A DNA stretch of 64,000 bases, taken from NCBI GenBank assembly GCA_965199495.1, contig CBDASK010000003.1:1408001-1472000 (forward strand), written 5' to 3'. Positions 9,082 through 38,396 of the stretch are shown piece by piece. The notes beneath the pieces are model-generated. The model was not told where the DNA came from, did not search any database, and saw nothing but the letters and a program-made list of their open reading frames with translations. Positions within the stretch are counted from its first letter, which is position 1; every line of letters begins with the position of its first letter. Source of the stretch: Abditibacterium sp. Lineage in GTDB: Bacteria; Armatimonadota; Abditibacteriia; Abditibacteriales; Abditibacteriaceae. Position numbers and translations under genes: made by a program.

Positions 9082-9371
9082 CAAGGACTTGTGCCCAATG
9101 GCATGAATTGAGTTGGAAGCAACTCTGACTCACACCCCCACTGCCTGCGCACTGCCCTGGTTTCACCGGGCGCCCACCCCCTCCGAGAGGGGAAGAATGC
9201 CTCGGACGTTTCGGAGCTTCCTTAATCCATGCGAAGCAGTCAAAGTAACTGCGGCATCCTCCCCTCTCGGAGGGGGTGGGCGCCCGGTGAAACCAGGGCA
9301 GTGCGCAGGCAATGGGGGTGTGAGTCAGAGTTGCTTCCAACTCAATTCATGCCATTGGGCACAAGTCCTTG
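9082..9371. repeat. Long near-perfect palindrome (MITE-like), ~119-bp arms
   Basis: 9082-9201 is the reverse complement of 9253-9371 with few mismatches; contains CCCCTCCGAGAGGGG. Confidence 0.9.
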
Positions 9372-9398
9372 ATATCGCCACTCTATAAAAAGAGAAAC

Positions 9399-11471: not shown

Positions 11472-11541
11472 GAATCGCCTCTTAGTTTGATTGATTCGCG
11501 TGCGCACAACGCGCCCACGAAAACGCGGTCAAACTTCGCTT

Positions 11542-12654
11542 ATGAAATTGTTCCGTCTGCTGGCACTTTCTGTGGCATTGCTCGCTCCGTGCGCCCACGC
11601 GCAAAACCCACCCGAAACGTTGCGCGAAGCCGCGCCCAAAGGTTTGCTCGTCGGCGGCGCCATCGCGACGCAGGATTTGGACAAACCCGAACTCGCGAAT
11701 TTGGCCGCACGACAGTTCAGTGCGATTACGCCCGAATACGAAATGATGCCCGAAAAGTTAGTGGACGACAACGGCAAATTCGATTTTGCGACCGCCGACC
11801 GCGTCGTGGATTTCGCCAAAAAAAATCATCAAAGCGTTTTCGGGCATATGCTGGTTTGGCACTTCGTCACGCGCCGGTGGCTCTTTGAAAGTCCCGATGG
11901 CAAACCGTTGCCGCGCGACAAAGCGTTAGCAAATCTGGAGCTTTATATTTCGACGGTCGTCGGCCATTATAAAGGCCGCGTCAAAGCGTGGGATGTCGTC
12001 AACGAAGGCATCAGCGACGCCGATGGCGAATATCTCAAAGATACGCTAGCATTGCGCGCAATTGGGCCGGATTACATCCAAAAAGCCTTCGAGTTCGCGC
12101 ACGCCGCCGACCCAAACGCCGAGTTGTATTACAACGATTACAACATCGAACAGCCGGGCAAATTGGAAAAAACGATTAAATTGGTGCGCTCGCTACAAGA
12201 CGCGGGCGTACGCTTGGACGCCGTCGGCATTCAGGGCCACTGGCTCATCAATTGGCCGCCGACCGAGATGATCGAAAACGGCATCGAAGCCTTAGCAAAA
12301 ACCGGCGTCAAAGTGATGATTACCGAGTTGGATGTGGACGTTTTACCGCGCGATGTGAGCGGCGCCGACATGGCGCAAACCGAAACCGGCGCCAATCCGT
12401 ATAAAGACGGATTGCCCGCCGCGATGCAACAAAAATTGGCCAATCGTTACAGCGAAATCATGACGGCGATTTTGCGTCATCCCTCCGTCACGTTCATCGG
12501 TTTCTGGGGCACGCACGATGGCCGCTCGTGGCTCAACGATTTCCCGGTCAAAGGCCGCACCAATTATCCGCTTTTGTTCGACCGCAGGTTGCAACCCAAA
12601 CCCGCGTTCGACGCCGTGATTAAAGCGTTGAATTCCGCGCCAAAAACTGATTGA
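11542..12654 (+). CDS. Endo-1,4-beta-xylanase, GH10
   Basis: Signal peptide; GHMLVWH, WDVVNE, YNDYN, GIQGH, ITELDV. Confidence 0.95.
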   Translation: MKLFRLLALSVALLAPCAHAQNPPETLREAAPKGLLVGGAIATQDLDKPELANLAARQFSAITPEYEMMPEKLVDDNGKFDFATADRVVDFAKKNHQSVFGHMLVWHFVTRRWLFESPDGKPLPRDKALANLELYISTVVGHYKGRVKAWDVVNEGISDADGEYLKDTLALRAIGPDYIQKAFEFAHAADPNAELYYNDYNIEQPGKLEKTIKLVRSLQDAGVRLDAVGIQGHWLINWPPTEMIENGIEALAKTGVKVMITELDVDVLPRDVSGADMAQTETGANPYKDGLPAAMQQKLANRYSEIMTAILRHPSVTFIGFWGTHDGRSWLNDFPVKGRTNYPLLFDRRLQPKPAFDAVIKALNSAPKTD

Positions 12655-12694
12655 TTTCCGTCAACGCCTCACGCGCGCCCAAATCAATCGCAAT
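12620..12694 (-). pseudogene. Displaced original 3' end of the sirtuin gene
   Basis: Reads IAIDLGAREALTEINQFLARNSTL*, homologous to ISITLGARDASD*IDQIV at the current sirtuin end. Confidence 0.8.
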
Positions 12695-13390
12695 TTAGGC
12701 GGCGACTAATTCTTTAGCCCGTTGCTTTCGAGTTGTCGTGCCACTATCCCACATTCGATCAAATTTGGGGCGTTGCTTATAATGAGCCGTATTCTGAGTC
12801 CAACGGAGAGAAGAATACCCTGCCATCAAACGATGGCCTACCCATCGAGTATCAACAAAATTGGGGGCACCAGGAATGTTAAGAAGCAAGATGCGCCCCA
12901 TGAAACGTGTCCATTGCCTTTGTGTCAGCAAAGTCAAACCGTAAAAATGAAAAGAACGTCCTGAATTAAAAATTTCGAATTTATCGCAACCAAAATCACT
13001 GGAGAGTTCGACCAAACGGTTAATGTCCTGATCGTTGATGTCCGATCCAAAATCGATCATTGGAATGTGGTAAAGTCGTTGAGTCCAGCCACGCCGCACC
13101 CACACCCTCGAATGAAAAGCGATTTCCTGATCGTGGCCGAGCGAAGACTGCTCGATTTGAAAACGCGAAATTAAATCTTGAGCGTTGATTCTGAATGTGC
13201 GGCGCTCATCTTCAATCGTTTGAGGCCTATACGAGTAAACGCTCAATTCGAGTTTTTCAATCTCGGAATGACGACGACAAAATTTTTCCAACAAAAGAGC
13301 CGGATGATCGGGCTCTTGAGCGGGAGGCGAAACATCTTTGGAGCGCGCCCACAAAAGCTGGGGCAAGGCGAAATTCTGTGAGCGTAGCAT
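12695..13390 (-). CDS. Archaeo-eukaryotic primase (AEP)-like protein, possibly 'primase 1D-like'
   Basis: HIPMIDF (motif I-like), FNSGRSFHFYG (motif II), FVDTRW (motif III-like); AT-rich. Confidence 0.6.
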   Translation of the reverse strand: MLRSQNFALPQLLWARSKDVSPPAQEPDHPALLLEKFCRRHSEIEKLELSVYSYRPQTIEDERRTFRINAQDLISRFQIEQSSLGHDQEIAFHSRVWVRRGWTQRLYHIPMIDFGSDINDQDINRLVELSSDFGCDKFEIFNSGRSFHFYGLTLLTQRQWTRFMGRILLLNIPGAPNFVDTRWVGHRLMAGYSSLRWTQNTAHYKQRPKFDRMWDSGTTTRKQRAKELVAA

Positions 13391-13429
13391 AGTGCAGAGA
13401 TAGCAACTTTTTGTCCTAAATCTCGGTTT

Positions 13430-14935
13430 CTATGTGGTAATGCCTTTGAGCATATTGAAGGTCTTGACGGCGTGACTGTCTGTCATGCCAGAAACGTAAT
13501 CGACGATGAGATGGGCACGCAAAACTGGCTCCAAATTCGCCGACTCATGCTTTGCTTCGAAATAAGCGTGCAACTGTTTGTTAGACAGCAGAGAATAGAG
13601 TCGTTTCTCCAAATGAAACTTACTGTTTGAAGGCAAGTTCGCGAATTCTTCACTTCTAAGGCGCAGTAAAGGAGAGAAGCCATCTAAAATGCCCTGCACG
13701 ATATGGTATCCGCTGAGTTCAACGTTCATCGCTTCTTTGGACGTAAAGATGTATTTTTTGGCGAACGCTCGCAGAAAATTCAAGATTTTCTCTCTTTCCA
13801 AGTCAAGCAATGTCCGTTGAAATTCTCCAGCCAAAATAGCCGCGTGATTTTCCAAATAGACCTTAGTGGCTCTCTTCACCAGCGCATTGGTCACAGCTAC
13901 TTTGAAACTCACAAAAAGAGCATTGGGTGAACGAATCTCTTCACTGCCATTTTGATACGAAAAAATTGTGGGAGTTTTGCTGCCCCTTTCTGGGCGCGTT
14001 TGGTAACTGCGACACCACTTTTGATAGTCTATAATGCCGTCCAAAAATTTGCTCATTCCCAGAGATTCACACACTCGTTTAACTTCACCAATAGTTCCTA
14101 ACAACTCACCTTCTAATACTTCATAAACGAAAACTTTTTCGGTGATAATCTGCTTTTCCAACGCATCTTCGATGTCGCTCGAACAATATGCGATATCATC
14201 AGCGGCTTCCATCAGAAAAACCAGGGGATGACGTTAAGCTGGCAAGCCACCAGAATTTGTTTTCAGTCCCAGTTGCTTCCATGTTTCTCTAATTATTTCG
14301 TGTTCTGTATGGAAAAACCCCGCTTTTTTGCCGAATGGGGCACCTTCATTCTTGCGCGGCCCCAAATATTTCAAGAGTGCGGCAATTAGCGTATAGGTTG
14401 GGTTCAGGCCAAATTCGTTGTCGAGCCACTGCAAACGAGTGATGATGCGTAAAACTTGGGGATTGCCATCGAAATGCTCGAAGGCCCAAAAATGGGCTTC
14501 GGCATCAGCGATACCGTCCCAAGCGGACTCGATTTCCTGGCGACGTTGCGAAAACCAATCGCCGATAGCGGCTTCGCCCAAATGACCAAACGGCGGATTC
14601 CCAACATCATGCAATAAACACGCGTTTTGCACCGTCAAATAAAAAGGCAAGCGCAAACTTTCTGCGATGAGGTTTCCAGAGAGCAATGCATCGAAAGTAT
14701 ATGTCGCTATGAGTTCTCCAATGAAGGCCACCTCCATCGTATGGGTCAACCGAGAACGCACAGCGGCATTTTGTTCAAGTGAAAAAACTTGGGCTTTAGT
14801 CTGGAGACGCCGGAACGGAGCGGAAGTGATGATACGGCCTTTGTCACTCAACATTTCAGTAGTTAAATCGCGTCCCTCTTGCCGTGTTTTCTTACGCCTT
14901 TCGTGAGTTATTAAATGGTTATAATCATTTGACAT
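13430..14935 (-). pseudogene. dGTP triphosphohydrolase (long HD-domain type) interrupted by an in-frame TAA
   Basis: FRRLQTKAQVF, RSRLTHTMEV, LHDVGNPPFGH, FDGNPQ, then GGLPA*RHPLVFLMEAADDIAY, DYVSGMTD; both ORFs share one frame. Confidence 0.9.
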
Positions 14936-14966
14936 AGAATTTTTGAGCAGAAACAATTTGATCGAT

Positions 14967-15761
14967 TTAATCTGATGCGTCACGCGCGCCAAGTGTAATA
15001 GAAATTGTGCCGCGCGGCCCCTGACTTTCGCGCACGTTGATTCTCACGAGAGTCGCGCCCGCGCGTTGCAGACGTTCGCCGAAATCGCGCACCGTCGGAA
15101 TCGCCGTGCCCGCCCCACATTCGATGATCGTCAATTTCGTTTTGTCAATTTCGCTGAGCCAACGCGTTAGCGATTGTTCTTCTTTCAAACTGCGGCCCAA
15201 AATCCACGCGCCGTCCCAAAACATCAAAATATTGGGCCGCAATAACTCGCCGCAATTGGGGCAACGCGGCAAATCACCAACGGCACGAAACGTTTGCGCA
15301 TCCACTTCGATATTTGTGTTGGCCGCGCTCCAAATCGTATCGCTGCACGGCACGACGCATTGCAAATGATGAATCGAACCGTGAACTTCGCAGACGTTTT
15401 CGATGCCCGCTTTCCTAAATTGTCCGTCCACGTTCGAGGTATAAACGCGCGCCGGTTTTTCGTCGGCCCACTTTTTCAGAATCGCGAAACCCTTATGCGG
15501 CGCGGTTTGGCGATACAAATTTAAGCGGTGGCCGTAGAAACCCCACGCCAATTCGGGATCGCGTTCAAACCACGATGGATTGGCCATCTCCGCGAAACCG
15601 ATGCCCAATTGTGCGAGCGGCGGATAAGCGCGCCAGAAGCCTTCATTGCCCCTGAAATCGGGCAAACCCGAATCAACTCCCATTCCGGCGCCTGCCGTGA
15701 ATAGCAAAAATTCGGCGTTCGAGATGGCACGCGCGGCGGCTTCAATTGAAGAATTGATCAT
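14967..15761 (-). CDS. Sir2-family NAD-dependent deacylase
   Basis: AGAGMGVDSGLPDFRG, TSNVDG, EVHGS, CPNC, RPNILMF. Confidence 0.92.
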   Translation of the reverse strand: MINSSIEAAARAISNAEFLLFTAGAGMGVDSGLPDFRGNEGFWRAYPPLAQLGIGFAEMANPSWFERDPELAWGFYGHRLNLYRQTAPHKGFAILKKWADEKPARVYTSNVDGQFRKAGIENVCEVHGSIHHLQCVVPCSDTIWSAANTNIEVDAQTFRAVGDLPRCPNCGELLRPNILMFWDGAWILGRSLKEEQSLTRWLSEIDKTKLTIIECGAGTAIPTVRDFGERLQRAGATLVRINVRESQGPRGTISITLGARDASD

Positions 15762-15762
15762 A

Positions 15763-16221
15763 TTAAAATTTGAGTTTGCCATCATAATCTAAAATGCCCA
15801 CTTCAAACATTTTATTGAAATTATCCGCAGCGAAACGCTTTTCCAAATGTGGAATATAAATTTCGAGCAGTTCTTCGGGCGTGTGACAGAAGCGACCGTT
15901 CAAATCGTGAAATATCGTATTGGGAATCCAACTTAAAACTGCATAAGCCAAATGCGCCACACACAACAGATCAGGCGCACCTCGCGTGCTGTCAGTCGCA
16001 ATCGTCCAGTGGGCGCTCTGGCCCAACAAATGTTTTTGGCGAAACGGATATAAAGAACACCAGACTGCTGCGCCTTTTTCGCGCACCATCCATTCCGCTA
16101 AACAAGGAATAGAAGACGAATGTGGCTCACGAGATTCCGCATCGAAGAGCGTCAATATCTCTTCCCATTGGGCGAACGGAAACTCAGCTTCCGCGAAGTA
16201 AATGGCCGTGTTCGTGCTCAT
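15763..16221 (-). CDS. Hypothetical protein
   Basis: 152-aa ORF from ATG 16221 filling the gap between co-oriented genes. Confidence 0.55.
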   Translation of the reverse strand: MSTNTAIYFAEAEFPFAQWEEILTLFDAESREPHSSSIPCLAEWMVREKGAAVWCSLYPFRQKHLLGQSAHWTIATDSTRGAPDLLCVAHLAYAVLSWIPNTIFHDLNGRFCHTPEELLEIYIPHLEKRFAADNFNKMFEVGILDYDGKLKF

Positions 16222-16244
16222 TGTAAAATATAAATTTGAAGAGA

Positions 16245-37241: not shown

Positions 37242-38396
37242 TCACGAGCCACGCCACGAAGTCGGCGTAAAAATCTCGGCAAAAGTTTGCGAGGCGAAAC
37301 GGTCGGTCATGCCCGCGATGTAATCGCAGACGCAGCGCGCCAATTGTTCTTGGCTCAAATCGCGCCAATCGCCCGAAGTTGCCGGGCACAAAGTGCCCCG
37401 CATTACGCCGGGATTGTCCATGAAATAATCGAACAAACTGTTGATAACGTGATAAACGCGCGGCTCTTCGTCGGCGGAGTTGACCAAGTAAACATGGTCG
37501 AACATCCAATTTTTCAAGGCATCGGTCGCTTCCATCACGTCGTCGCGCATGGCGATACGCGCGCACTGGCGCTCGCCATTCACGGTTTCGCTCGACGCCT
37601 CGATAATCGCGCCGACCATCGTCGCAATGCGTTGCGCGTGACGCTCGCCTAAAACGTTCAGACATGCGCGCGGCAACTGATTTTGCTCGATAAACCCGGC
37701 GCGTAACGCGTCATCAATGTCGTGGTTGACATAAGCCACGCGGTCGCAGATGCGAATGACCTGGCCTTCGAGCGTCGAGGGTTTGCCGACTTGCAGCCAT
37801 TTATCGAGGGATTCGCCCGCCAATAAATCGGATTTGCCCTTGGAGTGATGCAAAATTCCGTCGCGCACTTCCCACGTCAAATTTAAGCCTTGCCCGCCGT
37901 TTTCCAATTCGTCGAAGATGCGCAGCGAATGTTCATAATGCCGAAAGCGCGCCTTGGAATCGTGGCGCCGATAAGCTGCGTCGAGCGCTTCCTCGCCGAC
38001 GTGGCCATAGGGCGCGTGGCCGACATCGTGGCCCATGCCGATGGCTTCGGTCAAATCTTCGTTCAAACGCAACGCGCGCGCGACGGTGCGCGAAATCTGC
38101 GTGACTTCGAGCGTATGCGTCAGCCTCGTGCGATAATGATCGAATTCGGGCGAGATAAAAACCTGCGTTTTGTGTTTCAGTCGCCGAAACGCTTTGGAGT
38201 GAATAATGCGGTCGCGGTCGCGCTGCCAGTTGGTGCGAATCGGGTCGGGTGAGATGGGTTTTTCGCGGCCTTTGGAGAGCGCCGATTTGGCGGCGTTGGG
38301 GCCGAGCGTGGCGAACTCGCGCGCTTCGAGCATTTGTCGAATATCGCTTAAATCCGCGCGCGGCGCGATGTCGGTGGCGTCGTGGGTGTTGTTCAT
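37242..38396 (-). CDS. dgt: dGTP triphosphohydrolase (short housekeeping type)
   Basis: QRDRDRIIHSKAFRRLKHKTQVF, RTRLTH, HDVGHAPYGH, DYIAGMTD. Confidence 0.93.
   Translation of the reverse strand: MNNTHDATDIAPRADLSDIRQMLEAREFATLGPNAAKSALSKGREKPISPDPIRTNWQRDRDRIIHSKAFRRLKHKTQVFISPEFDHYRTRLTHTLEVTQISRTVARALRLNEDLTEAIGMGHDVGHAPYGHVGEEALDAAYRRHDSKARFRHYEHSLRIFDELENGGQGLNLTWEVRDGILHHSKGKSDLLAGESLDKWLQVGKPSTLEGQVIRICDRVAYVNHDIDDALRAGFIEQNQLPRACLNVLGERHAQRIATMVGAIIEASSETVNGERQCARIAMRDDVMEATDALKNWMFDHVYLVNSADEEPRVYHVINSLFDYFMDNPGVMRGTLCPATSGDWRDLSQEQLARCVCDYIAGMTDRFASQTFAEIFTPTSWRGS

Follow-up and report, generated by a model that had tools for sequence, protein, structure and literature searches.

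A Dgt-type dGTPase and a predicted AEP-fold protein form a mobile gene pair, a likely anti-phage system

Introduction

Single-gene dGTPases such as Sp-dGTPase defend bacteria against phages (bioRxiv 10.1101/2025.07.09.663793). In the Clover system, described by Yamaguchi et al. in the same preprint, the dGTPase CloA is joined by CloB, a nucleotidyltransferase of the Pol-beta fold. CloA is activated by dTTP and is toxic without CloB, which makes p3diT, a 5'-triphosphate dinucleotide that occupies the dimer interface of CloA and suppresses the enzyme. The preprint names Nicastro et al. 2023 (NAR 51:11479) as the predictor of the Clover operon, and lists Clover, Hailong and Panoptes as recently described cases in which a nucleotide signal of immunity holds an effector back (bioRxiv 10.1101/2025.07.09.663793). 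A nucleic acid ligand has also been reported for E. coli Dgt. Single-stranded DNA binds this enzyme at the dimer interface (PMC9257424) and stimulates it (PMC9478638, PMC9257424), and R30 was proposed as a mark of the activation (PMC9257424).

In this study, we analysed a window of 64,000 nucleotides from Abditibacterium sp., in which the original prediction, made from the sequence alone, had pointed to a two-gene island of a dGTPase and an AEP-like protein as a candidate undescribed anti-phage module.

Results

The island and its insertion site

The two genes lie between a sir2 gene and a GH10 gene of the host. The features of the region and the second dGTPase gene of the window are as follows.

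11491..12654, plus strand: host gene for a GH10 glycosyl hydrolase, the other flank of the island
12669..12695, minus strand: imperfect direct repeat, GH10-side copy; it begins the displaced original sir2 3' end and reads IAIDLGAREALTEINQ...
12695..13390, minus strand: predicted AEP-fold 'primase 1D-like' protein, PF24387, 231 aa, intact
13430..14935, minus strand: dGTPase gene, HD-domain dGTP triphosphohydrolase of the E. coli Dgt type, 501 codons with an in-frame stop
14236-14234, minus strand: the in-frame TAA, codon 234, which precedes the EAADD catalytic Asp motif (aa 243-247)
14967..15785, minus strand: host gene for a Sir2-family deacylase, target of the insertion, which replaced its last codons; outside the module
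14980..15006, minus strand: imperfect direct repeat, sir2-side copy; 27 bp, 20/27 identical, with an 11-bp exact core
37242..38396, minus strand: native dgt, PRK01286-type, the intact housekeeping copy

The block at 12695-14966 has a GC content of 0.454, where the contig averages 0.557, and falls within the lowest 0.6% of 2077 windows of equal size, and the GC3 of the island genes is 0.46-0.47 against 0.59-0.70 for GH10, sir2 and the native dgt. The AT-richer block of ~2.3 kb described in the original prediction is thus borne out (GC 45% against 56% for the genome). Both island genes are on the minus strand and co-oriented, and 39 bp separates the dGTPase from the AEP ORF, where 40 bp had been given.

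The island is inserted within the 3' end of sir2. The original end of this gene has been displaced to 12695-12650, where it matches the 3' ends of sir2 in two genomes of the same genus, G125 and G134, at 85-88%. In G125, sir2 and GH10 adjoin with no intervening DNA. In addition, run X3, which belongs to another study, has a contig in which 12691 is fused to 15003, with a short side of 33 letters, and the length that it skips equals the repeat spacing of 2311 bp. These two empty sites show, as had been proposed, that both genes were transferred together. As happens with integrative elements, the insertion has exchanged the last sir2 codons for a divergent version of the same motif, although the island carries no integrase.

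A three-gene Sir2-dGTPase-AEP system was considered and rejected because sir2 is host-like in GC3, occurs in relatives that have no island and is not a recurring neighbour at the pair loci. The sir2 gene gives no PADLOC match. Scanning the island for promoters and terminators gave results at chance level and no minus-strand promoter, and no RNA holder is listed for the island. On the far side of sir2, a low-GC ORF at 15763-16242 (GC 0.448, GC3 0.46), which matches no model of Pfam, PADLOC or NCBIfam, is possibly a second small insertion. Elsewhere in the window, at 9091-9388, two near-identical intergenic repeats of ~150 bp with near-duplicate ORF translations lie between a phosphatase and a kinase gene.

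The dGTPase gene

The window copy of the dGTPase gene is a pseudogene, because its TAA lies upstream of the catalytic EAADD motif, and this copy of the pair is likely inactive. The original prediction had no more than hinted at the break, by speaking of a repaired operon. A depth-36 contig of run X1 also has the TAA; this observation is not independent, since X1 may be the source sample. In run X2, one 151-bp contig (depth 2.2) from a ~94%-identical relative reads CAA at the stop position; this single low-depth contig would fit a recent nonsense change in the window dGTPase.

The original prediction had called the enzyme a long-type HD dGTPase. It is an HD dGTPase, but its type is that of E. 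coli Dgt and not that of the Sp-dGTPase anti-phage family. The best-scoring model is the E. coli Dgt equivalog of NCBIfam, NF003429 (390 bits, cut-off 405), whereas the score against the anti-phage model NF041026 is 171 bits, far below the cut-off of 400. The enzyme passes TIGR01353 (287 bits, cut-off 152), scores 205 bits against the PADLOC dGTPase model and has 7w1f and 4x9e as its nearest PDB chains. A profile of 40 AEP-linked dGTPases scores E. coli Dgt (452 bits) above PA1124 (440) and CloA (319), and the HD/HE catalytic residues (H-HD-H-E-D), with the H-HD-D metal ligands and the HE dyad, are invariant in all 40. A control row, L108, was left out of the residue counts as a wrongly picked ORF.

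In a quick tree, the window dGTPase groups with the AEP-linked enzymes of loci L009 and L086 (support 100), outside a 10-member clade of housekeeping Dgt. The housekeeping copies form a clade of their own (SH-aLRT 100), and an AEP accompanies 0/10 of them. The native dgt at 37242, which had already been noted, is present as a member of a separate, PRK01286-type family, and a second dGTPase was found in 4/4 pair-bearing genomes examined. In the same tree, the housekeeping E. coli-type clade nests inside the AEP-linked diversity, on weak branches (82-89) and with long-branch outgroups, a hint that housekeeping Dgt might derive from a dGTPase-AEP system.

The 231-aa protein

Structure prediction gives the 231-aa protein the catalytic-core fold of the AEPs, as had been suggested from its motifs. 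All three of these are present, PMIDF at aa 110-114, SGRSFH at 143-148 and VD at 179-180. The ORF scores 124 bits against Pfam PF24387, 'AEP 1D-like' (cut-off 27), a model that 39/39 aligned AEP partners match, and has no match among the models of PADLOC or NCBIfam. With its AlphaFold2 model (pLDDT 86.9), the top 19 matches of a VIA structural search all belong to the AEP superfamily, with RepB' as the best (Z 10.6, rmsd 3.1 Å, 157 residues), and the structural neighbours include LigD and PrimPol. The best Foldseek matches are also AEPs, none at E<=0.001.

Among 166 homologues, D113 and D180 are kept in 166, H148 in 165 and S146 in 163, and both the SxH of motif II and the Asp of motif III of the superfamily are retained. 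Conservation extends to S143-G-R-S-x-H148, R182-W-x-G-H-R187 and R196. Motif I has the single acid D113 and no DxD/E, position 115 being acidic in 5% and position 111 in 0% of the homologues (n=166), so that canonical two-metal chemistry is not assured. E89 and D61 are two more conserved acids in the same homologues (97% and 91% acidic), and one of them might, as a guess, replace the missing metal ligand of motif I. From these sequences we infer that the AEP may well be a nucleotidyl-transfer enzyme. It has no accessory domain, and the search for fused or longer forms, which is weak evidence, found none.

Conservation and spread of the pair

The AEP loci number 86 in total: six from genomes, less one rejected as spurious, the 80 best of 114 from metagenomes, and one viral; L006 was left out as a spurious match and L008 as below the cut-off. 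The linkage proposed from the window recurs among these homologues, with a dGTPase directly upstream in 79 of the 85 loci that have upstream DNA (one has none; the metagenome part is the best 80 of 114). Clustering of the 85 ORFs at 90% identity gives 70 AEP clusters, 65 of which have a linked dGTPase. A 4-bp overlap of the dGTPase stop with the AEP start is seen in 36 of 74 pairs. No conserved third gene was found at the pair loci, where the next commonest neighbour cluster occurs in 7 loci.

Reverse searches were made for the dGTPase. In 401 genomes of one order, one new dGTPase (590 bits) had an adjoining AEP, and none of 7 housekeeping-clade matches had one. In 401 genomes sampled from one family, an AEP adjoined both of two new dGTPases (>620 bits) and was absent beside one housekeeping-type match. 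Over both searches, an AEP thus accompanies 3/3 new dGTPases above 580 bits and 0/8 of housekeeping type (470-485 bits). A further reverse search, of 401 genomes across the class, gave no new pair member. The pairwise identities of the dGTPases and of the AEPs are correlated (Spearman 0.50, 0/2000 permutations), although the sequences are kin and not independent.

These data bear on whether the island could be an anti-phage dGTPase that acts alone, accompanied by an unrelated passenger gene, as the existence of single-gene defence by Sp-dGTPase might suggest (bioRxiv 10.1101/2025.07.09.663793). Linkage in 79/85 loci, the 3/3 reciprocal result, the stop/start overlap and the correlated divergence largely exclude a passenger, which we hold to be highly improbable. 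Many bacteria carry the dGTPase and its AEP partner as one mobile unit of two genes whose pairing is tightly conserved.

The unit is patchily distributed, occurring in 2/401, 3/401 and 1/201 genomes. PF24387 is found in 0/9 genomes of the same genus and passes its cut-off in 1/201 genomes of the phylum, the source genome. The spread of the system comes to 835 proteins in one listing and 1045 representatives in another. The pair is present in cultured Pseudomonas and in other strains. Intact operons include that of Pseudomonas sp. EpS/L25 (L005) and that of L009, which among intact pairs is closest to the one in the window; the pair of L004 has no DNA match in 5,426 E. coli genomes.

AEP genes without a dGTPase

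In 6 of the 85 loci, the AEP occurs without a dGTPase. A solo AEP-1D on a phage contig of IMG/VR (L134:6001-6654, also L135) is found ~1.3 kb downstream from a tail-sheath gene; the ORFs in 12 kb include no dGTPase, and this AEP is a candidate counter-defence gene. Another (L089:5986-6558) lies amid tandem paralogues of a repeat protein on a 181-kb IMG/VR contig. A gene nearby presumably resembles IcmW of Dot/Icm, so this contig may represent an element similar to a plasmid. In bacteria, solo AEP-1D genes whose motifs are intact (L001/L016:7830-8498, L010 and L023) have as neighbours a flagellin-like gene, a 286-aa gene of no assigned kind or a chemoreceptor. In the ESM Atlas, a 109-member cluster of AEP look-alikes is 89% viral. 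Searches of GenBank phages gave no match to the AEP, and PHROG no meaningful match.

The solo AEPs retain D113, D180 and H148, which matters for whether the AEP is an enzyme at all. It might instead be a non-catalytic sensor of nucleotides or DNA, or an antitoxin, that binds the dGTPase directly and releases it on infection. Conserved surface motifs, YxYxP and RWxGHR, could serve such binding, translational coupling suggests a fixed stoichiometry, and one canonical metal ligand is missing. However, the near-invariance of D113, D180 and H148 (n=166) is what would be expected of a working active site, and their retention in solo AEPs also speaks against a purely binding role, which we consider quite unlikely.

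Genomic context

Representatives of neighbour-ORF clusters were scanned, 142 against PADLOC and Pfam and 84 against PADLOC, of 241 listed. Of the pair loci flanked by 4 kb or more, 22 of 37 have a defence-type neighbour, and after removal of near-duplicates 17 of 30, with none in the other 13. The neighbours include type I and II RM, BREX, Hachiman HamB, Mokosh, IetA, PD-Lambda-3B and GmrSD, and the tally also counts weaker calls, namely a lone methyltransferase, HNH, Fic and PDC candidates. Control loci around non-AEP dGTPases (n=10, 104 ORFs) gave one comparable and one doubtful match, with DegP-like, nucleosidase and helicase matches discounted as housekeeping genes. The difference between 17/30 and 1-2/10 gives a Fisher p of 0.013 or 0.07, in a hand tally with controls that are not taxon-matched. 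The island of the window has no defence neighbour of its own.

At other loci the surroundings are of a different kind. Many pairs sit among housekeeping genes, some of them beside nrdB or yfbR; in L005, L034 (upstream flank) and the L052 cluster, the pair directly follows a gene for a ribonucleotide-reductase small subunit or the deoxynucleotidase gene yfbR, which may mark either an insertion hotspot or a link in function. A second HD-like protein is encoded just downstream of the pair at L086:5265-6281, beside genes of DUF5131 and PDC-M41 type.

The housekeeping surroundings would suit a mobile cassette for nucleotide pools or DNA repair, with a dGTPase that would trim or sanitise dGTP and an AEP for gap filling or repriming. 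The dGTPase is also closer to housekeeping Dgt than to NF041026 (171 of 400 bits), and LigD and PrimPol are among the structural neighbours of the AEP. Against such a cassette stand the rarity and patchiness of the pair, its redundancy with a native dGTPase, its repeated inactivation and its enrichment beside defence genes, and, as weak evidence, an AEP with no accessory domain and no fused forms found. We regard a repair cassette as improbable. On gene content and context, the dGTPase-AEP pair is probably an anti-phage system.

The ligand pocket and the direction of a proposed signal

PDB entries 9p8s-9p8v were assigned to CloA by residue numbering. Among the p3diT residues of CloA, R29, R34 and D37 are each found in 0/40 AEP-linked dGTPases, R38 in 40/40 and F41 as F/Y in 27/40. 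Among the dTTP residues, D61 and K256 are each found in 0/40, R47 in 40/40 and Y452 in 4/40. Since the fold of the partner differs and the ligand residues of CloA are not kept, the pair as judged from these alignments is not Clover, and any ligand and trigger must differ from those of Clover.

Pocket residues of E. coli Dgt are better represented, with S34 and R38 in 40/40, G37 in 25/40, Q75 in 20/40 (H in 13) and Y79 in 20/40; at the ssDNA site, R30 is found in 2/40 and N41 in 10/40. The window dGTPase has T, T, F and L at the equivalents of R30, N41, Q75 and Y79, and the last two are lost to F and L in its subclade.

The first product of an AEP primase is a 5'-triphosphate dinucleotide. This, together with p3diT in Clover and the single-stranded DNA at the dimer interface of E. 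coli Dgt, is why we look to the AEP for a pocket ligand. In the mechanism that we propose, the dGTPase would starve the infecting phage of dGTP. The AEP would make a short 5'-triphosphate oligonucleotide of the type of a primase's first product, pppNpN, which would bind the pocket at the dGTPase dimer interface and restrain the enzyme until infection. Both the AEP-made signal and its inhibitory direction are drawn by analogy, and we propose the mechanism as a whole, a mobile anti-phage pair whose dGTPase is restrained by an oligonucleotide from the AEP, only tentatively, as quite possible and short of probable.

The inhibitory direction is suggested by the pattern of gene loss. The dGTPase is the broken member at five loci (the window, L003, L030, L070 and L120), none of the 86 AEPs is broken, none of 79 pairs has a broken AEP beside an intact dGTPase, and solo AEPs exist, among other places on a phage contig. 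This asymmetry is biased, because the loci were found through the AEP and the dGTPase gene is ~2.4x longer. In addition, it is not specific to the sign, because a costly effector would be lost first under either polarity.

The pocket, however, resembles more that of E. coli Dgt, where nucleic acid activates. The AEP might accordingly be a sensor of phage DNA or of altered nucleotide pools, whose oligonucleotide activates the dGTPase through a Dgt-like ssDNA site. The closeness of the partner dGTPases to E. coli Dgt and PA1124 before CloA, the retention of S34 and R38 throughout and of G37, Q75 and Y79 in part, and the stimulation of E. coli Dgt by single-stranded DNA (PMC9478638, PMC9257424) are in its favour. 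The loss of R30 and N41 from most of these enzymes weakens it, as does the solo AEP of the phage, where an activator would have no obvious use, and so does, with the biases just given, the lack of any pair with a broken AEP and an intact dGTPase. An activating signal is, in our estimate, unlikely.

Discussion

Pfam accessions close to PF24387 include PF24390 (PRTase-CE) and PF24391 (HD-CE), names that we take to come from Nicastro et al. 2023. The PF24387 model thus probably stems from that paper on conflict systems. It may have predicted the dGTPase-AEP pairing, and since the linkage is so tight, the pair was probably noted there. In full-text literature searches, we found no paper describing the pair, and neither 'primase' nor 'AEP' appears in the main text of a 2026 dGTPase survey (PMC13519002) or of a review (PMC13434031). 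For PF24387 we found no function established by experiment. The pair is possibly a system predicted before, is unnamed and has no entry in PADLOC 2.0. The word 'undescribed' in the original prediction holds to the extent that we found no description of the pair, and has to be softened because Clover is a tested two-gene analogue.

If the AEP makes a ligand of the kind proposed for the inhibitory mechanism, the primase fold would join the enzymes that make immune signals. The ligand would probably be a new molecule, because the thymine-reading residues of CloA are absent. The pair is small, widespread and available in cultured strains. It could help to explain why single-stranded DNA binds to E. 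coli Dgt, and it also yields a candidate counter-defence gene of phages.

Drawn together, the observations allow a more far-reaching model. The AEP would be a template-free synthase of an immune signal, and its pppNpN-type ligand would set the threshold at which the dGTPase fires, in convergence with Clover from an unrelated fold. Phages with a solo AEP would use it to switch the system off, and the long-unexplained site for ssDNA on E. coli Dgt would be a relic of the signalling pocket. We think it unlikely that all of these parts hold jointly.

In comparison with known systems, Clover is similar in having two genes adjacent in an operon and in defence contexts, a dGTPase and a small nucleotide-polymerising enzyme, an activity that is predicted for the AEP. 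CloA and the AEP-linked dGTPases have the HD/HE catalytic core in common, and p3diT is chemically a 5'-triphosphate dinucleotide of the primase type. In contrast, CloB has the Pol-beta fold and the partner here is predicted to have the AEP fold, and the AEP-linked dGTPase is of Dgt type (319 bits for CloA against 452 for Dgt). The nearest solved relatives are E. coli Dgt (4x9e) and P. aeruginosa PA1124 (7w1f), housekeeping enzymes regulated by single-stranded DNA. They have the pocket residues S34 and R38 in common with the AEP-linked dGTPases, and Q75 and Y79 with about half of them, but the housekeeping clade has no AEP, and pair-bearing genomes keep a separate dGTPase. Sp-dGTPase (NF041026; PADLOC PDLC02374) is similar in the likely effector action, depletion of dGTP, and differs in family, as the score of the window dGTPase against its model shows, and in lacking the near-obligate second gene of the pair. 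Replicative and repair AEPs such as RepB', the S-2L PrimPol, PriS and the LigD polymerase resemble the AEP of the pair in predicted fold, in the SxH of motif II and in the Asp of motif III. Unlike them, it has ~190 aa, no accessory domain and one acid in motif I in place of DxD/E, and where they are coupled to a helicase or a ligase, the AEP of the pair is coupled to a dGTPase.
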